Below, one piece after another: positions 4,083 through 22,790 of a stretch of DNA of 64,000 bases; the first letter of the stretch is position 1, and every line of letters begins with the position of its first letter. Source of the stretch: Candidatus Dormiibacterota bacterium (GTDB lineage Bacteria; Chloroflexota; Dormibacteria; Aeolococcales; Aeolococcaceae); assembly GCA_963708605.1 (NCBI GenBank), contig CAVPTG010000013.1, positions 140,748 to 204,747 of the forward strand. Direction: 5' to 3'. The translations under genes were made by a program, and so were the position numbers. The notes below the pieces were generated by a model. It was given only the letters and a program-made list of their open reading frames with translations, was not told the DNA's origin and searched no databases.

Positions 4083-4780
4083 GCGACGAGCGCAGGGCCC
4101 GCATCCTTGTCGTCGAGGACGACTCGGCGCTGCGCGAAGTCCTTGCCGGCGCGCTCGACTCTGCCGGTTACGAGACCTCGGTCGCTGCCCATGGGATCAC
4201 CGCGTCGCAGATGCTTCGGGACCCGGAGGCCATCGACATCGTCCTGCTCGATATCGGCCTGCCCTTCGTTGATGGCTGGCAGATCCTCGAGCACCTGGAC
4301 AATCACCAGCGCCCAGCGGTCATCGTCATCAGCGCTCGAGGTGAGGAGACCGACAAGGTTCGGGCCCTCGACCTGGGTGCCGACGACTACCTGGCCAAGC
4401 CTTTCGGCGCCGAGGAGCTGCTGGCTCGCGTGCGTGCGGTTCTCCGGCGCGTCAGGCCACCCGTTGGCGCCGGTGGCGTCGTCGTGCGGGGCAACGTCCG
4501 GGTCGACCTCGGCGCCCGGTCGGTCACGCGCGGCACCGTGGAGGTACGGCTTTCGCCGACCGAATGGCTGCTGCTCGCCGAGCTGGCCCGGAACGCCGGC
4601 GCCACGCTCGACCACCGCACCCTGCTTCAGCGCGTGTGGGGACCGCAGTATGCGGACGAGCGCAACTATCTGCGGACTTTCGCGCAGCGCCTGCGGGTCA
4701 AGCTCGAGGACGACCCGGCACACCCCGACATCGTGGTGACGGTGGGACGCCAGGGGTACCGATTCGGGCCACCTCGTTGA
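4079..4780 (+). CDS. kdpE: OmpR-family response regulator, KdpE-like
   Basis: RILVVEDD receiver domain and a C-terminal winged helix (NYLRTFAQRLRVKLEDDPAHPDIVVTVGRQGYRF) closely resembling KdpE. TTG at 4079 lies 5 nt after GGGAG and overlaps the upstream stop (TTGA). The longer 3515..4780 ORF was rejected. Confidence 0.8.
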   Translation: MSDERRARILVVEDDSALREVLAGALDSAGYETSVAAHGITASQMLRDPEAIDIVLLDIGLPFVDGWQILEHLDNHQRPAVIVISARGEETDKVRALDLGADDYLAKPFGAEELLARVRAVLRRVRPPVGAGGVVVRGNVRVDLGARSVTRGTVEVRLSPTEWLLLAELARNAGATLDHRTLLQRVWGPQYADERNYLRTFAQRLRVKLEDDPAHPDIVVTVGRQGYRFGPPR

Positions 4781-4807: not shown

Positions 4808-5605
4808 ATGTGCGCTGCGATGGCGTCGAATCTGAGCAGCCGCCGGGCGATTGTCTCCGGTCTCCGGCCGGTGGTGGTGTTCGTCGCTGCGGTGGTCGTG
4901 CCCGTCGTACTCGCGCTGGCACTCATCCCGTTTCGCAGCCAGGAGCCGGCTGCGACGGTTGCGCTCGGATTCGCCGTCGTGGTGTCGTTGCTTGCCGCCA
5001 CCGGGACACGCGGCTCAGCGCTTATTGCGGCCGTGTCGGCGGCACTCTGCTACGACATCGGTTTCACCCAGCCGTATGGGTCGCTGACGATCTCGCACCC
5101 GCAGGACATCGAGACGACCGTCCTTCTGCTCGTCGGCGGCCTCATCGTCGGTCAGCTCGCGGCTCGAAATCGCTCGCATCGCAGCCTCGCCGTGCAACAG
5201 CGCGAGGACCTCTCGCACGTCCAGGCAATCGCGGAGCTCATGGCCGCCGGCGCCGGGCCTGACGAGGTTGTCGAAGCCGTGGCCGACGAGCTGCGCAGCC
5301 TGCTCGGCCTGCGCGAGTGCTGGTTCGACACGTCGCGTCCGGAACGGCCGGGCCCAACGATCGACCGCAACGGCAACGTGAGCTGGGGGCGGACCTGGTG
5401 GGGGGTTGACACGCTCGGACTCCCCGGCAAGGAGATCACCATCGAGGTCGAGCACGATGTCCGTCGCCTCGGCCGCTATGTTCTGGTTGCTGAGGCCGGC
5501 ACCAAGGTGCGGCGCGATCAGCTGCTCGCCGCCGTGACGCTGGCCGACCAGGCCGGAGCCGCGCTGGGTTCCGGTCCCACACCGGTAGCGCTCGCGCATC
5601 GCTGA
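4808..5605 (+). CDS. KdpD-type transmembrane domain (DUF4118) plus GAF-like domain protein; no kinase domain
   Basis: Four TM helices with conserved YDIGFTQPYGSL, as in the KdpD membrane module, followed by a ~130-aa GAF-like region. Confidence 0.6.
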   Translation: MCAAMASNLSSRRAIVSGLRPVVVFVAAVVVPVVLALALIPFRSQEPAATVALGFAVVVSLLAATGTRGSALIAAVSAALCYDIGFTQPYGSLTISHPQDIETTVLLLVGGLIVGQLAARNRSHRSLAVQQREDLSHVQAIAELMAAGAGPDEVVEAVADELRSLLGLRECWFDTSRPERPGPTIDRNGNVSWGRTWWGVDTLGLPGKEITIEVEHDVRRLGRYVLVAEAGTKVRRDQLLAAVTLADQAGAALGSGPTPVALAHR

Positions 5606-5921
5606 GCGCACCCGTCGAAATCATGCAGTCGACGGTCGGCAAGGCAGCCCAAATCCATCGCGGAGACGGCGCGCGAATGTCACGCAGATCTCAGGTTCGG
5701 TGACCTCTGACTCGACCGACCTTGGGTGTCCACGGGGAATCGTGTGCCCAAGATGCGTCGTCCTACAGCCAGGCGTCGGGCGGCACGGCGTTGACGTTGC
5801 GTTGACTCTGACTACCGGAGACTGCGAACAGTGATGCCGCCTGAACTACTGGTTCTTCTCTGTTTCTTGGGGATGTTGGTCGCGAGCATCCTCATGGTCG
5901 CCGGACTCCGGAGGATCTGAG

Positions 5922-6017
5922 GTGGGCAGCCTCACCGGCTACATCGTCGCCGCGATCATCGCGTTCATCGCGGCGACCTATCTGCTCATCGCGCTGGTCG
6001 CTCCGGAGCGCTTCTGA
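5922..6017 (+). CDS. kdpF: K+-transporting ATPase subunit F
   Basis: 31-aa hydrophobic peptide VGSLTGYIVAAIIAFIAATYLLIALVAPERF with the ...PExF ending of KdpF. GGAGG lies 7 nt upstream of the GTG start; TGATG overlap with kdpA. Confidence 0.6.
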   Translation: MGSLTGYIVAAIIAFIAATYLLIALVAPERF

Positions 6018-7741
6018 TGGTCCTCGACATCATCGCCGTTGTGATCACCTATGCCGCTGTGGGGGTCGGCGCGTGGTTCCTTGGCAGCTACATGGTCAAG
6101 GTGTACAAGGGCGAGCGTGTCTGGCTGAGCCGCGTGCTCCGACCGGTCGAAAGGATCACCTACAAGATCATCGGCGTCGACGAGGAGCGCGAGCAGGGAT
6201 GGATCGCTTACACGGTGTCGATCCTTGCGGTCGCGCTGGTGAGCACCACGTTCACCTACCTGGTGCTGCGTTTCCAGGACCATCTTCCCCTCAACCCGCA
6301 ACATCTACCCGGCGTCCCGGCACCGCTCGCGTTCAACACGGCGATCAGCTTTGCCACCAACACCAACTGGCAGAACTACACCGGCGAGACCACGATGAGC
6401 TACTTCTCGCAGATGGTCGCTCTCGTGCTGCACAACTTCTTGAGCGCCGCGATGGGCATGGCGGTCGCCATCGTGGTCATCCGGGCGATCGCGCGACGCA
6501 CCATGAGCACGCTCGGCAACTTCTGGGTCGACACGGTGCGCGGCACCCTCTATGTGCTGCTGCCGATCAGCGTTGTCATCGCCGTGATCCTGGTCGCAAA
6601 TGGCGCCATTCAGAACTTCAGCGGCTACTCGGTCGTGCACACACTCACAAACGGGATTCAGACAATCGCTCAGGGGCCGGTTGCGTCGCAGGAGGCGATC
6701 AAGGACCTCGGCACCAACGGTGGCGGCTTCTTCAACGCCAACGCCGCCCACCCATTCGAGAACCCCAACGGCTTCACCAATGCGCTCGAGATCTTCGCGT
6801 GCCTGTTGATTCCCTTCAGCCTCGCGATCACCTTCGGAAGGTGGGTGGGACACGTCAAGCAGGGGATCGCGTTGGGTGCGGTCATGGGGATCATCCTGAT
6901 CAGCGCATGTGGCGTCGCCGCCTGGCAGGAGCAGCAGGGCAACCCCGCACTGGTCGGGACCGGCGCGACGCAGGTCGCCTCCGCCCAGTCCGCAGGCGGG
7001 AACATGGAGGGCAAGGAAGTTCGTTTCGGGCCCATCCAGAGCGCGCAGTACAACACCGCCACGACTGGCACCAGCACCGGCTCTGTCGACGCGTCCCAGG
7101 ACAGCTTCACGGCGTTAGGCGGCCTTATCCCGCTCGTGCTCATCAAGCTCGGCGAGATCACGCCCGGAGGTGTCGGCTCCGGCCTTTACGGGATGGTGGT
7201 CTTCGCGATCGTCGCGGTGTTCATCGCCGGTCTGATGGTCGGCCGAACGCCGGAATACGTGGGCAAGAAGATCGAGGCGCGCGATGTCAAATACGCAGCC
7301 ATTGCCATCCTCGTCCTGCCCGCATCGATCCTCGGATTCTCCGCCATCGCCGTGCTCACAGCGGGAGGGCAGGCTGGGCCGATCGCGACGCAGGGGACGC
7401 CGCACCAGCTCACTGAGATCCTGTATGCGTTCGCCTCAACGACGGGCAACAATGGCAGCGCGTTCGCGGGTCTGACGGGGAACACGCTCTACTACAACCT
7501 GATGCTGGCCGGCGCCATGTGGCTGGGGCGGTTCCTGTTCATCATCCCGGTGATGGCGATGGCGGGCAATCTCGTCAAGAAGAAGATCGTCCCGGCCAGC
7601 GCAGGCACCTTTCCCACCGACGGACTGCTCTTCGTTGCGCTCCTGGTTGGAACCATCCTCGTTGTCGCCGCACTGACGTTCTTCCCGGCAGTCTCGCTCG
7701 GACCCATCCTCGAGCACTTCAAGCTCATTGCGGTGCATTGA
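6017..7741 (+). CDS. kdpA: Potassium-transporting ATPase subunit A
   Basis: 574-aa polytopic protein with full-length KdpA similarity; located at the head of kdpABC. Confidence 0.95.
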
Positions 7742-7742
7742 G

Positions 7743-9818
7743 ATGGCCTTGGCAGCCGCTCACCATCCCCGACGCCGCCGCAGCAGCGTCACCGACCCGG
7801 CGTTGCTCTTCCCCGCGATCGCGCAGAGCTTCGTGAAGCTGGACCCACGCGTGATGGTGCGCAACCCGGTGATGTTCGTCGTCGAGATCGGCGCGGTGAT
7901 GACCACATACGTCTTCATCGCGGACATCGTGGGGAGCGCCGTCGACACCAGCTTCGTCGGGCAGATCGCTCTCTGGCTCTGGTTCACGGTGCTCTTCGCA
8001 AACTTTGCCGAGGCGATCGCCGAGGGCCGCGGCAAGGCGCAGGCACAGGCGCTGCGCCGCACACGCACGGAGACGATCGCCCGTAAGCTGCAGGGCGGCG
8101 TCGGCGGCAAGGAAACTCCGACCCCCGCCCCCGACCTGCGCAAGGGCGACATCGTCGTCTGCGAGGCAGGCGACGTCATACCGAGTGACGGCACGATCAT
8201 CGAGGGGATCGCGAGCGTCGACGAGTCCGCGATCACCGGTGAATCTGCACCGGTCATTCGTGAGGCCGGCGGCGACCGCAGCGCCGTCACCGGCGGGACG
8301 CGTGTGCTCAGCGACCGCATCGTCATTGAAATCACGCAGAACCCGGGCGAGACCTTCCTCGACCGCATGATCTCGCTTGTGGAGAGCGCCTCGCGGCAGA
8401 AGACTCCCAACGAGATCGCGCTCAACATTCTGCTGGCGAGCCTGACCCTGATCTTCCTGATCGCTGTGGTCACGCTGCAGCCGTACGCCGTCTTCTCGGG
8501 CGCGTCCATCGAGGTCACCGTGCTCGTCGCGCTTCTCGTCTGCCTCATCCCGACGACGATTGGCGGTCTGCTCAGCGCGATCGGCATCGCCGGAATCGAC
8601 CGCCTGCTCCAGAAGAACGTCCTTGCCATGTCCGGCCGCGCCGTCGAAGCGGCCGGCGACGTCGACACCCTGCTGCTCGACAAGACCGGCACGATCACGC
8701 TGGGCAATCGCCAGGCCACGGAGTTCCTGCCGGCACCCGGTGTGACCATGGAGCACCTGGTCCGCGCCGCCGACCTGGCGAGCCGCGCCGATGAGACCCC
8801 AGAGGGACGCTCGATCGTGGCCCTGGCCCGGCGGTTCGGCGCGCCGGAGGCCGAGGGCGATACCGTCTGGACCTTCGTGCCCTTCACGGCAGAAACGCGC
8901 ATGAGTGGTGTCGACAATGCCACGGGCAGCATCCGCAAGGGTGCGGGCGATGCCGTCGCGAAGTGGTGTGCCCAGGGCAAAGCCGATGATGGTGCCGTGC
9001 CCCAGGGCGTGACGGAGCAGGTCGAGGTCATCGCACGCAGTGGCGGCACGCCGCTGCTCGTGGCGCAGAACCACGTCATCCTCGGCACCATTCACCTGAA
9101 GGACATCGTCAAACCGGGGATAGCGGAACGGTTCGCCGAGCTGCGTCGGATGGGCCTGCGCACCGTGATGATCACGGGAGACAACCCGCTCACCGCTGCC
9201 GCCATCGCCGCCGAAGCCGGTGTCGACGACTTCCTGGCCGAGGCGACGCCGGAGAACAAGCTCGACCTCATCCGTCAGGAACAGGCGGGAGGGAAGCTCG
9301 TTGCAATGACCGGCGACGGAACCAACGACGCCCCCGCGCTTGCGCAGGCAGACGTCGGCGTTGCAATGAATAGTGGAACGCAGGCGGCCAAGGAAGCCGG
9401 CAATCTTGTCGACCTGGATAGCGACCCGACCAAGCTGATCGAGATCGTCGAGACGGGCAAGCAGATGCTCATCACGCGCGGTGCGCTGACCACCTTCAGC
9501 ATCGCCAACGACGTCGCCAAGTACTTCGCGATCATCCCGGCGATGTTCACCGCCTACGTGGCGCTCAAGCCGCTCGCGGTGCTGAACGTCATGCACCTGC
9601 AGTCGGCGCATAGCGCCATCCTGAGCGCGGTCATCTTCAACGCCCTCATCATCATCGCGCTCGTTCCACTCGCGTTGCGCGGCGTGCGCTTCCGGGCCGT
9701 CGGCGCCAGCTCCCTGCTGCGCCGCAACTTGCTCATCTACGGTGTCGGCGGCGTCATCGCGCCCTTCATCGGAATCAAGGTCATCGACGTGATCATCAAC
9801 GCGGTACACCTGGTCTAA
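7743..9818 (+). CDS. kdpB: Potassium-transporting ATPase subunit B (P-type ATPase)
   Basis: DKTGTIT phosphorylation motif, TGDNP and [10 protein letters not shown] motifs. ATG at 7743 lies 2 nt after the kdpA stop. Confidence 0.95.
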
Positions 9819-9823
9819 GTGTC

Positions 9824-10477
9824 ATGAATCCACGTAGCTGGCCCAAGGAGCTTCTCATCAGCCTCCGTCTCACGGTGGCTCTCGCCGCCATGGTGATCGT
9901 GTACACCTTCGTCATCACAGGAATCTCGCAGGTCGCTTTCAACAGCAACGCCAACGGCAGCCTGGTAACGATCGGAGGCAAGGCGGTCGGATCCACGATG
10001 ATCGGTCAGAGTTGCCCGCATGAGACCGTCGCCAAGGACGGGAGCCTCAAGATCACCATCGACACGAAGTACTTTCAGGGACGGCTCTCGTACACGACGA
10101 ATGCCAACACAGGGGCGCTGGAGCCGTGTAACGCCGCGAGCTCTGCGGGAAGCAACTACGGTCCCTCCAACTCGCTCCTGTTGGAGAATACCAGGGCCGC
10201 TGTGGCCGCGTACACGGCGGCCGGGGTGTCCACGCCTATCCCGATCGACCTGGTCACCTCAGACTTCACCGGCTTCGACCCGAACATCAGTGAGGCCGCC
10301 GCGCTCGCCCAGGTCAACATGGTCGCCGGCGCCCGGGGCTTCAGCCCCACCAAGCTGCACGCGCTCGTCGAATCCCATGTGCAGGGCCGCATTCTCTGGG
10401 TGTTTGGCGAGCCGGTCATCAATGTCCTGCAGCTCAACCTCGCCCTCGACGCGCAGCAGTCCACCCTCGCCGGCTGA
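9824..10477 (+). CDS. kdpC: Potassium-transporting ATPase subunit C
   Basis: N-terminal TM helix and KdpC-family sequence; sits between kdpB and the sensor genes. Confidence 0.9.
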   Translation: MNPRSWPKELLISLRLTVALAAMVIVYTFVITGISQVAFNSNANGSLVTIGGKAVGSTMIGQSCPHETVAKDGSLKITIDTKYFQGRLSYTTNANTGALEPCNAASSAGSNYGPSNSLLLENTRAAVAAYTAAGVSTPIPIDLVTSDFTGFDPNISEAAALAQVNMVAGARGFSPTKLHALVESHVQGRILWVFGEPVINVLQLNLALDAQQSTLAG

Positions 10478-10495: not shown

Positions 10496-12718
10496 GTGGC
10501 GCGCATCATTAGCGGTATGACGGATACGCTCGCCACGGCAGCGGTGCCGGCACCTCCTGCGGTCGCACGCGGCCACCTTCGGGTGTTCCTCGGAGCCACG
10601 CCGGGAAGTGGCAAGACCTTTGCGATGCTCCGTGAGGCGCACGACCGCCGCTCCCAGGGGGAGGACGTCGTCGTCGGGTACGTCGAGACGCACGGGCGCA
10701 AGCTCACCGAGCAGGCGATCGGCAGCCTCGAGGTCGTCCCACGTCTCAAGGCCGAGTACCACGGAAAGCTCATGGAGGAGATGGACCTCGACGCGATCCT
10801 CGTGCGCCACCCCCAGGTGGTGCTCGTCGATGAGCTCGCTCATACCAACGTGCCCGGCGTCCGCCACGCCAAGCGCTACGAGGATGTTGAGGAGATCCTC
10901 GACGCCGGGATAGACGTGGTCACCACCGTCAACGTGCAGCACCTCGAGTTGGTCAAGGACCTCGCCGAGCGCATAACCGGCATACCGGTTCGTGAGACTC
11001 TCCCCGACCAGGTTCTTGACAATGCTGACGAGATCCAGTTCATCGACATCTCCCCCGAGGCACTTCGCAAGCGCATGCGTCACGGCAACATCTACGCCCC
11101 GGAGAAGATCGACACGGCGCTCGCGAACTTCTTCAGGCCCGGAAACCTCGCTGCGCTGCGCGAGATCGCACTTCGACTTGTGGCGCAGACCGTCGGTCGC
11201 GCGCGAGGTGCCGTCCGCCCCGCTCCGCAATCGGTGCTCGTCGCCGTCAGCGGCCGTCAGAGCAGCGGTCCACTGATTCGCCGTGCGAGTCGTCTCGCGA
11301 GGCGCTTCGGCGGCTTCTGCACGGTGCTCGTGGTGACGGGACGTCACGATGAAGAGACCGCCAGCGGCAGAACCAAGGCCAGGGAGCTCGCAGAGCTGTT
11401 GCAGTGCGGGTTCATCGAGCGCCAGGGCAAGGTCGCCGACGCTGTGATCGGGGCTGCCCAGGAACTCAACGTGCAGCATGTCATTGTCGGTGAGGCAGCC
11501 CATCCCGGCGTGCGCGCCCGCCTGCGACGCGGACTCGTGGACCGGCTGATCACCGAGCTCCCGGATGTGAGCGTGCACGTCGTCGCCCGTCCGGCTCCGG
11601 TCAGCGACAATCCATTCGACAGCGAGCAGCGCCCTGACTCGGAGATGCTCCTCCGCGCCCTGCACGCGAGCGCGAGCCGGTCCGGACTACGCGTCTACCT
11701 CGGATATGCCCGGGGCTGTGGCACCACGGTCGCGATGCTCGACGAGGCGAATCGTCGCAGCCAGCGGGGCACGGACGTTGTCGTCGCAGCGGTGAAGACC
11801 GATGGCCGCAACCGCTGCGAGATCGCCCTCGGTGACCTCGAGATGCTCGGCGGGCGAACGTCGCCTGCGCGAGAAGGCATGGTTGACGTGGAAGCGCTGC
11901 TCCGCCGCAACCCGGAGGTCGCGTGCCTCGACGATCTCGCGGGGGTTGACACGCAGGGTCGACCGATCACCGAGGCAGTACCCCGCTTGCTGCGTGCCGG
12001 GATGATGCTGATCGCGACCCTGCACCTCACCGACCTCCGCAGCACCGTCGACGGCATGGGCGCGATGCTCGGGCCACGTCCAGCACATGTTGTGGATGAC
12101 GCCTTCCTCGACGAGGTGACCGAGCTCGAGATCGTCGACATCACGCCTTCGCTCCTGGATGAACGGCTCCGCCGAGGTGAGATCGTCCCGGCGAGCGAGG
12201 CGGCTCGGGCTCGTGCCCTCGCGTTCCGACCCGAGGTCCTCGCCTCGCTCCGCGAGCTGGCCTTCCGAATCCTTGCCGAGCACACCGATCGCCGTCTGAT
12301 TGCGTACATGCGCGACCGCGGGATCGAGACGCCGTGGGAGGTGAAGCCCCGCGTCATGCTCTGCGTGCCGCCGCGCTCCGGCATGGAGGACGTTATCGCC
12401 AGCACCGCGGCGCTCGCCGCTCGACTCGACGGCAAGATGACCGCGGTCACGGTTCGCGATCGCAAGCGCTCCGAGCAGGAGATGCAACTCCTCGGTACCT
12501 ACGCCGCCCTCACCCACCAGGCCGACGGGACCTTTGTGACTCTGTACGACCGCGACCCTGCCAGTGCCCTCACGCACTACGCGCGCAAGATCCTGGCCAC
12601 CGAGATCGTCGTCACCCGTGGTCGCGGACGTCGCGGGACGCTTCGCAAGCTGATCGAGCTCCTCACCGATGTTGACATCCACGTGCTCGCGACCCCGCAC
12701 GGGGCTTCAGCAGCCTGA
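10496..12718 (+). CDS. kdpD: Cytoplasmic tandem [KdpD N-terminal sensor domain + USP domain] x2 protein; no TM or kinase domains
   Basis: Residues 1-375 align with E. coli KdpD-N (LRVFLGATPGSGKTFAML...TVNVQHLE...GNIY...FFRPGNL) followed by a USP domain. Residues ~390-740 repeat the same two domains, with a degenerate P-loop (GYARGCGTT). Confidence 0.85.
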   Translation: MARIISGMTDTLATAAVPAPPAVARGHLRVFLGATPGSGKTFAMLREAHDRRSQGEDVVVGYVETHGRKLTEQAIGSLEVVPRLKAEYHGKLMEEMDLDAILVRHPQVVLVDELAHTNVPGVRHAKRYEDVEEILDAGIDVVTTVNVQHLELVKDLAERITGIPVRETLPDQVLDNADEIQFIDISPEALRKRMRHGNIYAPEKIDTALANFFRPGNLAALREIALRLVAQTVGRARGAVRPAPQSVLVAVSGRQSSGPLIRRASRLARRFGGFCTVLVVTGRHDEETASGRTKARELAELLQCGFIERQGKVADAVIGAAQELNVQHVIVGEAAHPGVRARLRRGLVDRLITELPDVSVHVVARPAPVSDNPFDSEQRPDSEMLLRALHASASRSGLRVYLGYARGCGTTVAMLDEANRRSQRGTDVVVAAVKTDGRNRCEIALGDLEMLGGRTSPAREGMVDVEALLRRNPEVACLDDLAGVDTQGRPITEAVPRLLRAGMMLIATLHLTDLRSTVDGMGAMLGPRPAHVVDDAFLDEVTELEIVDITPSLLDERLRRGEIVPASEAARARALAFRPEVLASLRELAFRILAEHTDRRLIAYMRDRGIETPWEVKPRVMLCVPPRSGMEDVIASTAALAARLDGKMTAVTVRDRKRSEQEMQLLGTYAALTHQADGTFVTLYDRDPASALTHYARKILATEIVVTRGRGRRGTLRKLIELLTDVDIHVLATPHGASAA

Positions 12719-12746: not shown

Positions 12747-13952
12747 CTAGGACACGGCCGCCGGATCAGTGACCGCGGGATCCGCGTGAACCGCCTCAAT
12801 GGGAGCGGCCGGGAGCGTGAACGCGAAGACGGCGCCACCGCCCATCTCGGGATCGTCAAGCCAGATCCGCCCGGCGTGTGCCTCGACGATCCCGCGGGCG
12901 ATCGCAAGCCCGAGACCGGTGCCCTCTGCCCCTGACTGCTCATCGCGGACGAAACGGTCGAAGACTCGGTCGCGCAGGCCGGCGTCGACGCCGGGACCGT
13001 GGTCGATGACACGCGTGACGATCGTTCCGCGGACTCCCGGGGCCACGTGGATCTCGATCGGTGACGTCGGAGGTGCATAGCGGTCTGCGTTCACGAGAAG
13101 GTTGTCCAGAACCTGGCCGATCCGGTCCCAGTCGGCAACCGCTTCGAGCGAACCCGGCTCGATGCTCACGCGGACGGTGCGCGTGGGACGGATCTGCTTG
13201 AGGCGCCCGACCGCCGCCTCGACAGCATCACCGACATCGATATCCTCGAGGCGGAGTTCGAGCGCATGCCCCTCGATGCGAGCCAGGTCGAGCATGTCGC
13301 CCACCAGCCGATCGAGCCTCCGGGACTGGGTGACGATGCCGGAGAGACCGTCGCGAACAGCCCCCGGCACATCGGTGCGACCGAGGAGCACCGTCGCACC
13401 GGTGAGAATGCTCGCCAGCGGCGTGCGCAACTCGTGGCTGACGTTCTGGAGCAGTTCACGCCGCACACGGTCCGCGTCTCGCAGCGCGGAGATCTGCTGC
13501 TGGGTCTGCGCAAGCCGGACCGCCGTCCGGGCCGACGCCGCCTGCTCCTGGTACAACCGCTCGAGCTCAACGTTCGCCTCGGCGAGCGTTCGGGTCAGCC
13601 GGTGCGCCTCGATCATCGCGCCCCGACGAAGCGCGGCGACCCCGCCGACCGCGCTGGCGGTCGCGAAGAAGATGACCAGGTAGAGGACGTCGCCCGGATT
13701 GGCGAGGCTGAGGCTGTCCACCGGAGGAAAGAAGAAGTAGTCGCCGAGGACGGATGACAGCACCGCGGCGACCAGCGCCGGGATGAGCCCGGTGAGCAGG
13801 CCGAGTGAAGCGACAATCCCCAGGTAGAGAAAGACGTAGGCGTGCGCTTCCGACGTCGGCAACTGGGCCAGGATCAGGGTCAGGAGCGGCGGACTCACCA
13901 ACGCGATGACGATCCCGGTGACGAGCACGCGATCGGTGCGGAGGCGAGTCAT
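12747..13952 (-). CDS. KdpD-like sensor histidine kinase core (DUF4118 TM domain + HisKA + HATPase), lacking the KdpD-N/USP/GAF regions
   Basis: TM region with the FFFPP motif; HELRTPL H-box; N/G1/G2 boxes (GTGLGLAIA). ATG overlaps the stop of the upstream exonuclease reading frame (TGATG). Confidence 0.8.
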   Translation of the reverse strand: MTRLRTDRVLVTGIVIALVSPPLLTLILAQLPTSEAHAYVFLYLGIVASLGLLTGLIPALVAAVLSSVLGDYFFFPPVDSLSLANPGDVLYLVIFFATASAVGGVAALRRGAMIEAHRLTRTLAEANVELERLYQEQAASARTAVRLAQTQQQISALRDADRVRRELLQNVSHELRTPLASILTGATVLLGRTDVPGAVRDGLSGIVTQSRRLDRLVGDMLDLARIEGHALELRLEDIDVGDAVEAAVGRLKQIRPTRTVRVSIEPGSLEAVADWDRIGQVLDNLLVNADRYAPPTSPIEIHVAPGVRGTIVTRVIDHGPGVDAGLRDRVFDRFVRDEQSGAEGTGLGLAIARGIVEAHAGRIWLDDPEMGGGAVFAFTLPAAPIEAVHADPAVTDPAAVS

Positions 13953-14816
13953 CAGGACGTGGCCAGCTGCTCGTTGAGCGCATCGACAAGACGGCTCGAC
14001 GCGGCCTGCAGGCCGTGCTCGGCCATCAGGCTGTTGAGCGCCGCGGGGTCCGCCGGATAGTGGTCGCGCCGGCCTTCCGGAAGCTCGATCGGGAGGTCGG
14101 GGACCGGTGGAACCACCCGGCTCGCTCGCGTCAGATAGTCCTGGTCGTGCTCGCTCAGCCGCCGGGACTTCGAGAAGCGCCGCGACGCCACCATGCTGGC
14201 GGATCATCGAGGCGGCAGCGACTGCGCCAACGCCTTTCAACCCCGGCAGCCCATCCGACGGATCGCCACGCAGCATCGCGTAATCCGCGTAGCGACGCCC
14301 TGGGATCCCGTAGCGCCGGGTCACCTCGGATTCGTCGACGAGTGCCCATGCCCCCTTCTCCGGGTAGAGCACCGTGACCCGCGGGTCCTCGACCAGCGCG
14401 AACAGGTCGCGGTCACCACTCACGATCTCGACGGTCGCGGCGGCCCTCGCGGTCCAGGTGGCGATGACGTCCTCCGCCTCGTACCCGGCGACGCCGAGCG
14501 CATCGATGCCGATCGCGGCAAGGAACGCGTCGATGACCGGCATCTGCGGGATGAGTGCCGGCGGGATCGGCTCCGCGACCCGCTGCGCTTTGTATCCCGG
14601 GATCAGCGCCACCCGCCAGTCCGGGCGCCAGTCGGCATCACTCGCGATCGCCAGGTGCTTCGGCTCCCTGGTGCCGGCCAGCCGCGTCAGCGTCTCGAGG
14701 AATCCCCGTGCGGCGTTGATCAGCCTTCCGTCCGGGGACCGCACCGTCTTGGGGACGCCGTAGAAGGCGCGGAAGATGAGGCTGGACCCGTCGACGAAGA
14801 GCCAGTCGCAGGACAT
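13952..14816 (-). pseudogene. 5'-3' exonuclease (FEN/Pol I N-terminal-like), reading frame interrupted near 14170-14200
   Basis: N-terminal PIN domain (WLFVDGSSLIFRAFYG) and H3TH motif (LPGLKGVGAVAAASMIRQHGGVAALLE) lie in one frame. The plausible C-terminus (...LSEHDQDYLTRASRVVPPVPDLPIELPEG...LATS*) lies in another frame, ending exactly at the kinase start. This could be a sequencing indel or a genuine frameshift. Confidence 0.65.
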
Positions 14817-14903
14817 CGACCGTCTACCGGCACCCATTCATGTGCGCGGCCATCGTAGCGTCCACCGGCTCGCTCCTCCGGGCTCATCTGCGACGCTTCC
14901 GGT

Positions 14904-17838: not shown

Positions 17839-20800
17839 CTACTGGAACCAGCCCGCGAGGTCGAGGATCGCATTGATCGTGCCAAAGGCGTTGTACAGAG
17901 CCACATCACCCACAGACGGCACGCTCTGGGCGACGCCGACGATCGACAGATTCGCTCTGACCTCGCCGGCGAGCGCGTTCAGGTCCGAGGCGCGCGGGAC
18001 TTGAACGACATTGGCCGGGAAGAGCGTGAACAGCGTGGTTGCATTCCCCGCCACCGCCGTCACATTGGCGACGATCGCAATCGGTGGCGTTCCGCTCATC
18101 ACCGGCACCTCGTGGACCCCCGCGACCGGGATCGCCAGTGTGGAATTGCCGCCGAGCGTCTCGCCTGCGCACTCGGTGCCTGAGCCGGTGCGAGTGTCAC
18201 AAATGCGCGTCGGTGCGACTGAGTTGAACAGAGCACCCACCGTCGTTTCGGCGCCCGTGCCGAACCACCCGTCGACATCGATGATGAAGTCGACGCTCCC
18301 CACCGCGTTGAAGACGCACACGTCATTCCGCGGTCCGAGCGCTGAGATCACACGGTTGGGCAAACTCTGATTCGCCGCCGGGTTCACGTTGGAAACCAAC
18401 GGCCGGGCCGGACATTGGTCGCTGCTGTTCGGTGGGGCGACCGCGAGGTAGGTTGCCTGGGTATCCGCGGTTGCCGTGAGATTGAAGACGGCGGTCGCGG
18501 CTGTTCCGTCGGATGGTATCGACGGGGTTGAAGGAGGAGCTCCAGGTGGCAGGCCGGACAGCACGACATCGCGCCAGGTCCCGCCTGCGACCCGGCCGCC
18601 GCACCCGATTCGAGTGTCGCATCGTCTCAACGGCGCAATGCTGTGGAATTCGCCGGGAACGATCCCGGAACCTACGGGAGTGGCGAAGTATCCCTCGACA
18701 TCCACAATCACGTCGGCAACTCCAACGGCGTTGTAGAGCGTTATCGCCCCCGCGGCGCTGAGCTGCACGATCGCCAGGTTGGTCGCGACGCCGCTGTGCT
18801 GGATATTGATATTGGACGCGAGAGGCCGCGCGACGCCTGTCGGATACGCGGTGATAAGGGTGCTCGAATTCGTGTCATTGACCGCAGTCAAATTGACTAC
18901 GACGGAGCGAGCTCCGGCCGGCACCACTCCCCCGGTGATCTGAACGTTCAGGGTGCCACCGGAGCCGAGAGCCCTTCCCTTGCACTGATTCGGCGGTATG
19001 GTCGAGGCGGACCGGGTGTCGCATGCGCGGAACGGCGTGATCGCGTGATAAGCGGTCGGGTCGAGGTACACATACGCGGACGGGTCAACAGCCGTGCTGT
19101 GGTCGGGATTGGTGATGGTCAGCGCGGCGGCTCCCGCTCCATTGGATGGCGGTACGGTTGCCGACCACGAGTTGGTGCCCGTGCTGGTGAGCGTCAACGG
19201 GTGGCCGCCGAGAGACATCGCCACCCCGGGTTGGAGGTCGACCCCGGTGATATGAATCGTTCCACCACCGGACGGCGGCCCCGATGCCGGCGTGAGGGTC
19301 AGGACGCCCGGGCCAACTTCGAGCTTGCCCGCGCCCCAGGTCGGGGCCGCCCTGCTGTTGGTGAGCGGAGTCGTGTTCGCGGACTGTGCGAGCAGCGACT
19401 TCGCCTGTGCGACGTCGATTGTGGGCTGCTGTTCGAGCAAGAGTGCAAGCGCACCCGCGACATGCGGAGAGGCCATGCTCGTGCCCTGGAGGAACAGGTG
19501 GTTGCCGTCTGATGGCTCGCATCCCTCGAATGAGCCGGCGGGACAATCACCGGCGATCGTTCCCTCTGCCGCCACGGAGGAGAGCGAGGAACCGATCTCC
19601 TCGCCGGGAGCAACGATGTCGATCCCAGTGCGACCATCCAGGGTGGGCCCGTGGCCGCTGAAGCTGCTGATGGCGCCTACGACTGAGGAGTCCGTCTGCG
19701 TGCCGAGATAACTGGGCCAGGAGTTCCTGCTGACATAGCTGCCGACGGCGATGACGTCGTGCGCGCTCGCGGGTTCGTCGAGCGTCGAATTGTCGTTTCC
19801 GTCGCCGACGTAGAAGAAGTAGTCCCCCTGATCAAACGTCCATGCGTTGTACTCACCACTCGGCGTCGTGTTACCCCGCAGCAGCACCTGAAAGTCGTTG
19901 AAACATGGGAAGGTCACTGAACAATCGATCCCGTCCGCTGGGGAGATGAGGCCCGCGGCACCGCCCGAATTCGCGTTGAAGAGGGCTATCTGGATTTCAT
20001 TCATACCGTTGCTGGGCATGTGCGTGCACGAGAGGATCTCGAGAACATTGCCTTGGGTATCAGTGAATTCGTCCCCTCCGGGCGTCGGCTGGGTACACGC
20101 GCCGCCCTCTCCTGAGACGCCGGTTGTATCGGGCGACACCCAGGCCGTCTGGCCATGGCCGGGTTCATTGATCGCCGCTGAGATTGAGTTTGCTCCCGGG
20201 TACCAGAGGTCGAGAAATATGGGCATGGCCTGCGCAACAAGGCCGTCAGTCCGCACTTGCCCAAATGCCACCGTTCCACTGGCGTGATAGTGAAACGACG
20301 GATCGTTGGTCGCTTCATTGCCACCCGCGACGCTGACAAGCTTTCCCGGACCAGTGAGCGCGTCGAGCATCGTTTCGAATATGTCGCTGCCGTCATGGGG
20401 ACCCACGTTGGTACCGAGGCTGATATTCACCGAGGCGGGTTCGCCACGCGACCCTGCAACCTTGAAGATGTACGCAACCCCGTCTACGATGTGCGCGAGG
20501 TTACCGTCGTTCTTGACAATGACGAGGTCCGACTCCGGCGCTACGCCGATATAGGTTCCCCAGGATGCCGCGCGTCCGTCGGAGGCTGCGATCCCGGCGA
20601 CGTGTGTCCCGTGCCCATCGCAGTCCTCTTCAGGCAAGGATTCGGGGGCGGACCCCACAACGCCAACCGGCGTATCACAGGGATCAGGCCCGTACTGGCT
20701 GTACGAGAACGGACCGCAGGCTGCTGCTTTGATCGCCGATTGGCTGCACTCGGCGCCATACGTGAATCCCTGCGAGTTGGGTGGCTGAGCGGGGCAACTG

Positions 20801-22632
20801 TTGCCCGACGGATTGGGGCAGGCGGCCTGATCCCAGAGGTCGACGATGCGCGTCCCGGAGTTGGTCTGGAAATCGGGGTTGCTGAGGTCGATGCCCGTAT
20901 CGACAACTCCAACCACTGTGCCTTGCCCCCCATCGCCGCTGAACGTCGGCGGCGCCGGCGAGTGGAAGATCGTCGGTGCGTAGTCCTGCGCAAGTGTGCA
21001 GGCACCAGTGATGTACACGCCGGTTCCGGACACGGCGGGTTGAGCTGAATCTGCGAGCGCAGTGTTGGCCAATTGCACCTCCGCGCCGGTGGATTCGGAC
21101 CATCCCGACAAGGTGGCAGCCGAGTTGAGGTAGACAGCTCCGTTGCTCGCAACCAGTGCTTGCCCACCTTGATAGACTTGGGGCTGGGTCCAGGCGAGAG
21201 CACCCGTGTCGGCGTCAAACGCCGTGATGTGTGTGGTTCCAGCCGCGGCGACCGTAAAGACGCGGCCATTGTCGTATGCGAGCCCTGAGAACGCGCTGGT
21301 GCCCAACGAGATGGGTCCCCAAGCGACTGAACCGTCGGATTCGTTCAGTGCGTACAGCGAGGCTTCGCCGAAAGCCGGAGGCACAGCCGAGGCCTGCGCG
21401 ATGACATAAACCAAGCCCCCTGCTATCAGCGGGTTCGAGACGGTCGCGCCCAGCGTCACACTCCACTTCGGGCTCGCCGCGAGCGGTGCGGTGAGGCTGT
21501 CTGTCGGCTGGTCGCCGTCATGGCCTGCATTGATCTGATACGCAACATCGGTATCGGAGGAAACCGACACAGTCGTGTCACCGAAAGCCGTGAGTGTCCC
21601 GGTTGCAGGCACCACCAACAGGCCCCCGCCCGCTCCAAGTCCGGACGGCAATCCATGGCCGCTGGCCTCGTCCTCCTTGGGCGGTGAAATCGGGGCGCCA
21701 GCATTGCCAGCCCAGATGGGTGTGTTCAGCATGGTCCCGTTGCCGGCCTCCGGTAGCGCGAACACCTTTCCCGAGCCCGCCCCTACATACACATTTCCAT
21801 TCACCACAATCGGTGCCGTGATCGGGGCCGAGCTCGGGCTCCCGTCTCCGGAGAACGTCCAGAGCGCGGTGCCGCTCGCATTGCGCGCAGTCAGCACGCC
21901 TGCGCTGACGTAGAACCCGGTCGTCCCATCGAAGGCCGGCGCAAGGTCGGCAGTGAACGTGCCGACATCGAGGCCCGTCGTTGCATTGAGGATGAAGTTC
22001 CCCTCCTGCACGTTTCTATCGTAGAGGAGCCCGTCATGAAGGACAGGCACGCGAGCGGCGTTGATCGAACAGTTCGCGCCGGTCTCCCAGACAACCTTGC
22101 CACCCTCGGAGGTCATATACGGTCCATCCGAGCCTCCGGTGCCGGACCACAAATGAGGGACACCTGCATTGCTTACGTGCCCTGGTTCCGACGCGTGAAT
22201 TGCAGGAACGCTCATATCGAGCTGTTTCGTAGCCTGGCCGGCAAGTTCCACCTCGGTGATCCCTGGCAGCGCCGCCAGGAGTTTCAACTCAGCGAGGGTT
22301 GCATCGGCGGTGGCGCCGACCCTGAGCACGGTGCCTGGCACGGCGCCCGTCTGAGCGATCGCCTCGGCAGTTGTCGTGCCCCGAATGAACACACCGTATG
22401 TCGTGCCCTGCTTGGTCGCCCTGCCCCGTAGCCACGCCGCCGGGAGTTTGCGGCCATGCACGGTTGCCGAAATGGCGGCCTCGGCCAGCGGCCCGAGGGT
22501 AGCGTGATGTCCGCGCGCAACCGGCGCTGGCGCCGCGACGCCGCTCAGTGGCTGCGACTGCGACCACACTGCGGTCGCCATCAGCGCAGCCACCAGAACA
22601 TAGGCGAAACGCTTCACGGAGAACTCCCTCAC
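17839..22632 (-). CDS. Giant secreted multidomain protein: PQQ-like beta-propeller + S8 subtilisin-like protease (with insertions) + IPT/TIG domain + three C-terminal CDTR...GWF repeats
   Basis: Signal peptide; S8 catalytic triad contexts VVGVVDTGID, DCDGHGTHVAGIAAS and GTSMASPHVAGALALL; PQQ-type repeats; three ~125-aa C-terminal repeats. Confidence 0.85.
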   Translation of the reverse strand: MREFSVKRFAYVLVAALMATAVWSQSQPLSGVAAPAPVARGHHATLGPLAEAAISATVHGRKLPAAWLRGRATKQGTTYGVFIRGTTTAEAIAQTGAVPGTVLRVGATADATLAELKLLAALPGITEVELAGQATKQLDMSVPAIHASEPGHVSNAGVPHLWSGTGGSDGPYMTSEGGKVVWETGANCSINAARVPVLHDGLLYDRNVQEGNFILNATTGLDVGTFTADLAPAFDGTTGFYVSAGVLTARNASGTALWTFSGDGSPSSAPITAPIVVNGNVYVGAGSGKVFALPEAGNGTMLNTPIWAGNAGAPISPPKEDEASGHGLPSGLGAGGGLLVVPATGTLTAFGDTTVSVSSDTDVAYQINAGHDGDQPTDSLTAPLAASPKWSVTLGATVSNPLIAGGLVYVIAQASAVPPAFGEASLYALNESDGSVAWGPISLGTSAFSGLAYDNGRVFTVAAAGTTHITAFDADTGALAWTQPQVYQGGQALVASNGAVYLNSAATLSGWSESTGAEVQLANTALADSAQPAVSGTGVYITGACTLAQDYAPTIFHSPAPPTFSGDGGQGTVVGVVDTGIDLSNPDFQTNSGTRIVDLWDQAACPNPSGNSCPAQPPNSQGFTYGAECSQSAIKAAACGPFSYSQYGPDPCDTPVGVVGSAPESLPEEDCDGHGTHVAGIAASDGRAASWGTYIGVAPESDLVIVKNDGNLAHIVDGVAYIFKVAGSRGEPASVNISLGTNVGPHDGSDIFETMLDALTGPGKLVSVAGGNEATNDPSFHYHASGTVAFGQVRTDGLVAQAMPIFLDLWYPGANSISAAINEPGHGQTAWVSPDTTGVSGEGGACTQPTPGGDEFTDTQGNVLEILSCTHMPSNGMNEIQIALFNANSGGAAGLISPADGIDCSVTFPCFNDFQVLLRGNTTPSGEYNAWTFDQGDYFFYVGDGNDNSTLDEPASAHDVIAVGSYVSRNSWPSYLGTQTDSSVVGAISSFSGHGPTLDGRTGIDIVAPGEEIGSSLSSVAAEGTIAGDCPAGSFEGCEPSDGNHLFLQGTSMASPHVAGALALLLEQQPTIDVAQAKSLLAQSANTTPLTNSRAAPTWGAGKLEVGPGVLTLTPASGPPSGGGTIHITGVDLQPGVAMSLGGHPLTLTSTGTNSWSATVPPSNGAGAAALTITNPDHSTAVDPSAYVYLDPTAYHAITPFRACDTRSASTIPPNQCKGRALGSGGTLNVQITGGVVPAGARSVVVNLTAVNDTNSSTLITAYPTGVARPLASNINIQHSGVATNLAIVQLSAAGAITLYNAVGVADVIVDVEGYFATPVGSGIVPGEFHSIAPLRRCDTRIGCGGRVAGGTWRDVVLSGLPPGAPPSTPSIPSDGTAATAVFNLTATADTQATYLAVAPPNSSDQCPARPLVSNVNPAANQSLPNRVISALGPRNDVCVFNAVGSVDFIIDVDGWFGTGAETTVGALFNSVAPTRICDTRTGSGTECAGETLGGNSTLAIPVAGVHEVPVMSGTPPIAIVANVTAVAGNATTLFTLFPANVVQVPRASDLNALAGEVRANLSIVGVAQSVPSVGDVALYNAFGTINAILDLAGWFQ

Positions 22633-22716: not shown

Positions 22717-22790
22717 TGGGCGGGCCTGGATTCGAACCAGGGACCGTGGGGTTATGAGCCCCCTGCTCTAACCGGCTGAGCTACCCGCCC
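22717..22790 (-). tRNA. tRNA-Met (anticodon CAT)
   Basis: 74-nt cloverleaf GGGCGGGTAGCTCAGCCGGTTAGAGCAGGGGGCTCATAACCCCACGGTCCCTGGTTCGAATCCAGGCCCGCCCA. G1:C72 pair is elongator-like; CCA is not encoded. Confidence 0.85.

Follow-up and report, generated by a model that had tools for sequence, protein, structure and literature searches.

Tandem KdpD-N and USP modules in the kdp operon of Candidatus Dormibacterota: one module complete and one degenerate in its catalytic motifs

Why does a potassium pump operon end in a gene which encodes the N-terminal unit of KdpD twice, once with its nucleotide-binding motifs intact and once without them? The question is raised by a stretch of 64,000 nucleotides (nt) from a Candidatus Dormiibacterota bacterium (contig CAVPTG010000013.1, positions 140,748 to 204,747 of the forward strand), which is referred to in its entire length as the window. 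Both copies of the unit, each a KdpD N-terminal domain (KdpD-N) followed by a USP domain, reside in one chain of 740 amino acids (aa) encoded at 10496..12718 on the + strand. A preliminary description had viewed this protein as a tandem duplication with a degraded second ATP-binding loop and as an active/pseudo-ATPase pair, and had nominated both USP domains as c-di-AMP sites. We propose, with a probability of roughly 0.6, that it is a soluble regulator of the KdpFABC pump in which module 1 would act as serine kinase of KdpB and module 2 as a non-catalytic regulatory partner.

The gene and its parts are as follows.

10496..12718, + strand: double-module gene, 740 aa from the GTG at 10496; last gene of the kdp operon
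10568..11194, + strand: module 1 KdpD-N, aa 25-233; catalytically complete by motifs
11231..11590, + strand: module 1 USP-like domain (USP1), aa 246-365; least conserved part of the protein
11591..11677, + strand: inter-module linker, aa 366-394; contains an RPDSEMLLRAL helix
11678..12283, + strand: module 2 KdpD-N, aa 395-596; catalytically degenerate by motifs
12341..12691, + strand: module 2 USP-like domain (USP2), aa 616-732; conserved CVPPRxGM beta1-alpha1 loop

The true start probably is the ATG at 10517 because Met8 is near-invariant among homologues. Pfam KdpD (PF02702, gathering cut-off 26.1 bits) matches the protein twice with a total of 453.8 bits. Scanned alone, the first segment (aa 25-233) reaches 316.3 bits and the second (aa 395-596) 143.0 bits, and either covers the full 210-position profile. 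The NCBIfam profile NF038185 (KdpD_non_kinase) aligns through the USP part in both halves (profile positions 17-371 and 5-344 of 373); the scores are 485.8 bits for the whole protein, 342.7 bits for half 1 and 147.8 bits for half 2. These matches confirm the tandem duplication. When the halves are aligned against each other by BLASTP they share 33% identity over 276 aa (E = 3e-29). Because this is far above chance and yet only 33%, the duplication is real and old, and it is no duplication of the assembly. The KdpD-N of half 1 is 54% identical to that of E. coli over 209 aa and has the same 54% identity to the KdpD-N of D. geothermalis and A. acidocaldarius. Module 2 KdpD-N is 33-36% identical to any canonical KdpD-N. 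In the alignment the RPDSEMLLRAL helix of the linker matches RPDPDRLL at the N-terminus of E. coli KdpD.

The alignment of both halves to profile hidden Markov models, a check proposed in the preliminary description, thus is significant for KdpD-N in both, but the outcome differs for the USP domains. With Pfam Usp (PF00582, cut-off 24 bits) USP1 is borderline, i.e., 26.6 bits within the whole protein and 23.5 bits alone, and USP2 is not matched by this profile. USP2 is covered by NF038185 up to profile position 344 of 373. By BLASTP, USP1 is related to the USP domain of D. geothermalis KdpD (E = 5.5e-10) and USP2 to that of E. coli KdpD (E = 1.4e-7). No transmembrane or histidine-kinase domain of Pfam is matched in the protein (no HisKA, no HATPase). 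The profile of the KdpD sensor histidine kinase (NF007793 / PRK10490) reaches 428.4 bits, under its cut-off of 1123, and is matched at positions 20-377 of 895. Homologues are automatically annotated as 'two-component system sensor histidine kinase KdpD' (JGI) or as 'hypothetical protein' (NCBI). The JGI label is wrong for the window protein since neither HisKA nor HATPase is matched and the histidine-kinase profile is matched only N-terminally.

Which catalytic residues does each module retain? The N-terminal domain of KdpD is an atypical serine kinase which phosphorylates KdpB at Ser162 (Silberberg et al., 2024; PMC11018627). In E. coli the kinase needs G36/K37/T38 of Walker A, the adenine pair W39/R190 and D109/E110 of Walker B, and E161 of KdpB assists. 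Mutation of the KdpD residues abolishes phosphorylation of KdpB-S162; the Walker A triple mutant and E110A are inactive (PMC11018627). The motif states in both modules were read from an alignment to E. coli KdpD.

Walker A: GKT in module 1; GTT in module 2
W39 position: F in module 1; V in module 2
Walker B: D-E in module 1; D-D in module 2
RHxKR loop: present in module 1; removed by a three-residue deletion in module 2
NVQH: present in module 1; LHLTD in module 2
RET: present in module 1; PAH in module 2
R190 equivalent: kept in module 1; kept in module 2

The corresponding motifs are located at these positions.

10592-10618, + strand: module 1 Walker A, GATPGSGKT, then F; aa 33-41
10823-10843, + strand: module 1 Walker B, VDELAH
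10922-10948, + strand: module 1 TTVNVQHLE
11702-11728, + strand: module 2 pseudo-Walker A, GYARGCGTT; aa 403-411
11924-11944, + strand: module 2 LDDLAG
12014-12037, + strand: module 2 ATLHLTDL; aa 507-514

The strings GATPGSGKT, GYARGCGTT and LHLTD (in ATLHLTDL) are all present as had been quoted, and the alignment bears out that the first nucleotide site is intact and that the second is devoid of the Walker lysine. The notion of an active/pseudo-ATPase pair can be kept in part. The active/pseudo reading fits all sequence evidence; however, KdpD-N is a serine kinase (PMC11018627), so kinase/pseudokinase is the better term.

The preliminary description had further suggested a survey for the same double module in other genomes. 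Such homologues are plentiful. A search which covered 5.8 billion proteins yielded more than 100 independent full-length homologues of the same architecture, 57-93% identical and nearly all 735-750 aa long; those which carry names are metagenome-assembled genomes (MAGs) of Candidatus Dormibacterota. A species-level scan, with one genome per GTDB species and an alignment of module-2 sequences as query, confirmed 183 loci. The best 80 of these 183 are almost all from Dormibacterota; a few carry the label Chloroflexota, Actinomycetes, Thermoleophilia or Limnocylindria. In the following, motif counts refer to 76 scorable species-level loci and synteny counts to the best 80 of the 183.

The pairing of an intact with a degenerate module is present in 76 of 76 loci, almost all of them from Candidatus Dormibacterota. 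The module 1 motif is invariant in 108 full-length homologues, and its GKT and D-E are found in every one of the 76 loci. The position of W39 is occupied in module 1 by Phe, as in the window, in 69 loci and by Tyr in 7, where E. coli has Trp; the Arg is kept. The same position in module 2 is V, T, I or S, and the Arg is kept there as well. The Walker lysine of module 2 is replaced by Thr in 105 of the 108 full-length homologues. At the species level the loop ends in GTT (67/76) or GAT (9/76), and a lysine is found in none (0/76). The Walker B pair of module 2 is DD in 65 loci and GD in one. The motifs RHxKR, NVQH and RET are invariant in canonical modules.

Is module 2 then a module in decay? 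Mean identities to the window protein across the family are 86% for module 1 KdpD-N, 68% for USP1, 77% for module 2 KdpD-N and 78% for USP2. The segment around the pseudo-P-loop (aa 398-432) has a mean column identity of 0.89 compared with 0.78 elsewhere in module 2 KdpD-N. When the wider clade is aligned (31-63% identity), 24 columns are invariant, and 13 of them belong to the 30-residue pseudo-P-loop region. Among the full-length homologues G407, G409 and T411 of the loop are invariant. The most conserved 20-residue block of half 2 is the helix after module 2 KdpD-N (aa 596-615, AEHTDRRLVAYMR) with 0.90. The linker has a column identity of 0.59. Judged by these figures, module 2 is under strong purifying selection and is not decaying. 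The word 'degraded', applied earlier to the second P-loop, is misleading because the loop was remodelled and then held constant.

The double-module gene is preceded by the genes of the pump and faces a gene for a histidine kinase.

4094..4780, + strand: OmpR-family response regulator, KdpE-like by position; Pfam Response_reg 91.3 bits and Trans_reg_C 66.9 bits
4808..5605, + strand: membrane protein of 265 aa with DUF4118 (KdpD-type transmembrane); Pfam DUF4118 67.3 bits at aa 26-130
5834-5920, + strand: hydrophobic 28-codon open reading frame (MPPELLVLLCFLGMLVASILMVAGLRRI), which ends two bases before kdpF
5922..6017, + strand: kdpF, 31 aa; Potass_KdpF 18.9 bits, below the cut-off of 21.2, position as kdpF in three distant relatives (L001-L003)
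6017..7741, + strand: kdpA, an open reading frame; homologous kdpA upstream in 64/80 related loci, Pfam KdpA in L001-L003
7728..9818, + strand: kdpB, P-type ATPase subunit and presumed substrate
9824..10477, + strand: kdpC; Pfam KdpC 172.1 bits
12747..13952, - strand: convergent membrane histidine kinase of 401 aa; Pfam DUF4118, HisKA and HATPase_c, start ATG at 13952

The TGES motif of the window KdpB (within ITGESAPV) is at nt 8235-8246, aa 170-173, and its Glu-Ser is equivalent to E. coli E161/S162. The 401-aa histidine kinase has no Pfam match to KdpD-N, USP or GAF. Together with the response regulator it is the presumed transcriptional arm. The parts of canonical KdpD are therefore distributed over separate genes in the window, with two copies of the N-terminal unit. 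The regulator is found in the same position in the relative L003. The 265-aa DUF4118 protein has no kinase domains, and its last ~130 residues are without a Pfam match; in 8 related loci its C-terminus can be seen at the left edge. Situated between the response regulator and kdpF, it may be the sensing part (possibly GAF-like) which is absent from the 401-aa histidine kinase. The product of the 28-codon reading frame may be an additional small subunit in the membrane, or else a leader peptide; at the equivalent place L003 has a 30-codon open reading frame without a Pfam match.

This arrangement is shared by relatives. The gene calls of the three distant relatives L001-L003 show the same gene order. 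Directly upstream of the double module kdpA is found in 64, kdpB in 70 and kdpC in 70 of the 80 loci, and a homologue of the convergent histidine kinase is located downstream in 64 of the 80, plus L001 and L003. Both modules are in a single open reading frame in about 65 of the 80 loci. A diverged subclade (L073, L076, L081, L083, L084, L086) and the metagenomic locus L004 have the modules as two separate genes. There, module 1 stops cleanly after the USP domain, and the GTG, ATG or TTG start of module 2 overlaps with the stop codon (GTGA/ATGA type). By its gene structure the two-gene form is a translationally coupled version of the fused pair, either a product of fission or the unfused ancestral form. 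Apparent splits in closer relatives (L012, L014, L024, L034, L022, L041, L048) were judged to be sequencing frameshifts, because the tails of the reading frames read out-of-frame or the breaks fall inside modules; they were not counted.

A structure prediction by AlphaFold2 was built on a 67-sequence alignment. The mean predicted local distance difference test score (pLDDT) is 82.6. Both halves are folded confidently, USP1 and USP2 display the alternating beta/alpha pattern, and aa 367-377 of the linker are disordered (pLDDT < 50). According to Foldseek the model matches the KdpD-N crystal structure 2r8r with a template modelling (TM) score of 0.92 at 55% identity, and the c-di-AMP-bound KdpD USP domain 7ji4 with a TM score of 0.81, a match which is reported for the model and not assigned to one half. 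A search of the PDB by sequence with the window protein returned 2r8r as sole match, and with each USP region alone the matches were at chance level.

Double modules are not confined to this type. A HMMER search with module 2 against 1.84 billion cluster representatives, followed by domain parsing, identified complete double modules in at least 25 clusters at 50% identity. Three types can be distinguished. In type A, that of the window, module 1 is canonical and module 2 degenerate; in type B module 1 is degenerate in Walker B and module 2 canonical; in type C both modules are canonical. For the other types a cluster look-up gave two names, one Chloroflexota and one Streptosporangiaceae. The type B family comprises P0151, P0157, P0138, P0173 and P0179 and the loci L005 and L006; its module 1 is without the Walker B Glu and other motifs. 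In L005 the gene is upstream of kdpABC and by a CLC channel gene, and has no adjacent histidine kinase. In P0129 / P0272 (1161-1168 aa; a Streptosporangiaceae MAG) and P0133 a double KdpD-N/USP unit is placed behind what the sources name an ABC-type ATP-binding / AAA-associated N-terminal region. Both modules of P0129 are degenerate in Walker B, and the second is also without the Walker lysine. In a rough neighbour-joining tree the type A module 2 sequences form one clade and their module 1 partners another, with internal groupings which are broadly alike, i.e., the two co-diverged. The degenerate modules of type B are placed elsewhere. The tree suggests separate duplication events and a repeated evolution of asymmetry across double modules.

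How might such a pair operate? What is directly observed is which domains are present, the state of their motifs, their conservation, the synteny, and that fused as well as split forms occur; from these we derive the following proposal. Two fused KdpD-N + USP modules, which originated in an ancient duplication, would form a soluble regulator of the KdpFABC potassium pump. Module 1 would phosphorylate the TGES serine of the co-encoded KdpB and in this way shut down the pump once K+ suffices. Module 2 most likely is unable to transfer phosphate because the Walker A Lys, the Walker B Glu and three other motifs are lost. It would be an obligate non-catalytic partner, a pseudokinase, which controls or positions module 1. 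The two may constitute an intramolecular pseudo-dimer in which the remodelled loop of module 2 possibly still binds a phosphate-containing ligand. That the modules also occur as overlapping separate genes argues for a stoichiometric pair. Transcription would be controlled by the separate DUF4118 histidine kinase together with the OmpR-type regulator.

Several points weigh against this proposal. It is from sequence that module 1 is deduced to be an active kinase and module 2 to be inactive and regulatory. The Walker B pair DE is kept in module 2 of 10 of the 76 loci. The glycine-rich loop of module 2 with its two threonines could bind nucleotide and could even support an unconventional chemistry. 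The predicted template modelling score (pTM) of the structural model is only 0.54, and the linker is disordered. Because of this pTM the relative placement of the modules, i.e., their packing, is undefined. Further, with 485.8 bits the window protein does not reach the cut-off of 550 bits of NF038185, which makes it a relative outside of the curated family. Lastly, the tree is distance-based, and fast-evolving modules may group artificially as long branches attract.

A tentative alternative, in line with the second-messenger sites of the preliminary description, is that the loop of module 2 and/or USP2 is a sensor for a ligand (ADP/ATP or c-di-AMP) and serves as an allosteric gate of module 1. 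The conserved glycine-rich loop with its invariant residues G407, G409 and T411 would suit a sensor, as would the higher conservation of USP2 compared to USP1 (78% vs 68%). The KdpD/Usp of D. geothermalis is c-di-AMP-activated, and diadenylate cyclase is encoded in 86 of 86 species with a related double architecture discussed below. The published motif for c-di-AMP binding does not agree with such a role. In the USP domain of Firmicute KdpD it is (A/G/C)xSxSxxN plus Y/F at the end of beta2 (Dutta 2021, PMC8214093). USP1 (AVSGRQSS ... L) matches at 2 of 5 positions and USP2 (CVPPRSGM ... T) at 1 of 5, so the nomination of both domains as c-di-AMP sites finds no backing here, though the c-di-AMP-activated KdpD of D. 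geothermalis also fails the motif (AVAAEGTA). Because of the latter, c-di-AMP binding cannot be judged from sequence. No c-di-AMP riboswitch (Rfam) was detected at the gathering threshold across the window, nor at E<=1 over 5500-6100, upstream of kdpF. Regular expressions for diadenylate cyclase (DGA...G[ST]RH[RK], G[ST]RHR[AST]) found no motif in the window, which says little for a region of 64 kb. Both results speak against the sensor, as does the absent lysine of module 2, since triphosphates normally bind less well once the Walker lysine is lost.

We consider it doubtful that module 2 is a docking or scaffold domain which, with no need for a ligand, tethers the soluble kinase to the DUF4118 histidine kinase, the 265-aa DUF4118 protein or KdpB. 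It would then replace the covalent link between KdpD-N/USP and the membrane part of full-length KdpD. The convergent histidine kinase, which adjoins in 64/80 loci, has no KdpD-N or USP of its own, and the helix at aa 596-615, the most conserved block of half 2, is equivalent to a region of KdpD which leads towards the membrane domain. However, docking leaves the top conservation of the pseudo-P-loop unexplained, some related loci are without an adjacent histidine kinase, and in many phyla KdpD/Usp chains with a single module function alongside separate histidine kinases (PMC11018627).

Improbable is the idea that the loop of module 2 is a remodelled phosphate site which reads or reverses the serine phosphorylation of KdpB. 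It could bind phospho-KdpB or carry out a phosphorolytic or hydrolytic dephosphorylation; HprK/P is a P-loop enzyme with such a dephosphorylation activity. The modification of KdpB Ser162 in E. coli is described as irreversible. A site of this kind would furnish a reversible off-switch of the Kdp pump.

It is very unlikely that both modules are active kinases and that module 2 operates through a non-canonical loop. Admittedly, module 2 keeps the fold, the first Walker B Asp, the R190 equivalent and the Thr of GK[T], and there are related double-module families whose modules are both fully canonical. Yet it is without Lys in 76/76 loci and without Glu in 66/76, it has lost RHxKR, NVQH and RET, and the corresponding E. 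coli variants, the Walker A triple mutant and E110A, are inactive (PMC11018627).

Finally, that the second half is a functionless, decaying relic or an assembly artefact is hardly credible: it is more diverged (33-36% vs 54% identity to canonical KdpD-N), but its reading frame is intact and its family identity is 77-78% with many invariant residues, so that its conservation rules out decay, while a half-to-half identity of only 33% and the recurrence of the architecture in more than 100 independent assemblies and 183 species-level loci rule out a misassembly or recent duplication.

Some neighbouring features deserve mention. Upstream of the histidine kinase gene a gene for a 5'-3' exonuclease (13952-14837, - strand) has a one-base insertion by a CCC run near 14164-14168. 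The apparent 696-aa 'exonuclease-kinase fusion' at 12747-14837 exists only because the frameshifted exonuclease frame runs into the kinase open reading frame. Five close relatives have an intact 294-aa exonuclease gene which reads ...ALLEARRLSEHDQDYL.... The kinase ATG at 13952 and the stop codon of the exonuclease overlap. The frameshift is either a sequencing error or a recent pseudogene. A secreted-looking protein of 1597 aa, unrelated to the double module, is encoded at 17839-22632 (- strand); by eye it has a subtilase-like segment (...DGHGTHVAG...GTSMASPHVAG...) and repeated C-terminal modules. Its gene adjoins a tRNA gene at 22717-22790 (- strand; Rfam 67.9 bits).

What is gained by these comparisons? 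That KdpD-N functions as a serine kinase has been known only since 2024, and its regulation can be approached through a natural kinase/pseudokinase pair which is conserved. A comparison of the fused, coupled, reversed-polarity and both-canonical forms can address whether the units pair, what contribution the second one makes and what signal it conveys. Further, an annotation is corrected: in genes of Dormibacterota labelled as sensor histidine kinase or hypothetical protein a histidine-kinase domain is absent. The finding refines, in evolutionary and mechanistic terms, a system already known and is no new kind of system.

How does the protein compare with known KdpD forms? Full-length E. coli KdpD, in which a serine and a histidine kinase are joined in tandem, has the same N-terminal KdpD-N + USP unit, and the Glu-Ser of KdpB is conserved. 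In contrast, in the window the membrane part, the dimerization and histidine-phosphotransfer part (DHp) and the catalytic part (CA) are on a separate convergent gene, the unit is doubled, and an extra DUF4118-only protein is encoded upstream. Some full-length KdpDs have degenerate Walker motifs, sometimes in species which also have a canonical KdpD/Usp chain as a separate protein (PMC11018627, supplement). Similar full-length proteins with GAT or GTT loops include P0215, P0181 and P0208. There the degenerate domain is inside a histidine kinase and its canonical partner is separate, whereas the modules discussed here form one soluble chain or are encoded by coupled genes. The short KdpD/Usp of D. 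geothermalis (Q1J2K3; NF038185) has a single module and is activated by c-di-AMP (PMC11018627). Its gene likewise is at the end of the kdp operon, and module 1 of the window protein keeps the catalytic residues, with Phe in the place of W39; the difference is the addition of a second, degenerate module.

The closest precedent is the version 'KdpD domain, Usp domain x2', which ranks among the five KdpD versions seen most often (Silberberg et al., 2024, Nat Commun 15:3223, Fig. 4, Supplementary Data 1-2; PMC11018627). It was recorded in 86 of 5495 species, i.e., 80 Bacillota, 4 Nitrospirota and 2 Cyanobacteriota; diadenylate cyclase is present in 86 of the 86, and KdpE is absent in 78 (PMC11018627). 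An example is Q6KBY6 of A. acidocaldarius, with a split kdpD region which Schleussinger et al. (2006) described. The likeness is considerable: here too one soluble chain carries KdpD-N + USP twice and lacks histidine-kinase domains, its gene is downstream of those of the pump, and transcription is the task of a separate two-component system. Two differences stand out. The window clade consists of uncultured Dormibacterota, which were outside of the survey because it covered named species, and has a regulator and a DUF4118 histidine kinase alongside. Further, in Alicyclobacillus sp. F8IKB2, the one Alicyclobacillus entry which is readable that far, the second module starts with a canonical GAAPGVGKT, whereas the second module of the window protein is without the Walker Lys. 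A degenerate second module in a double chain was not found in the text or supplements of Silberberg et al. (2024) or in literature searches. The window protein thus is an asymmetric variant of a catalogued doubled architecture, and the asymmetry is the new part.

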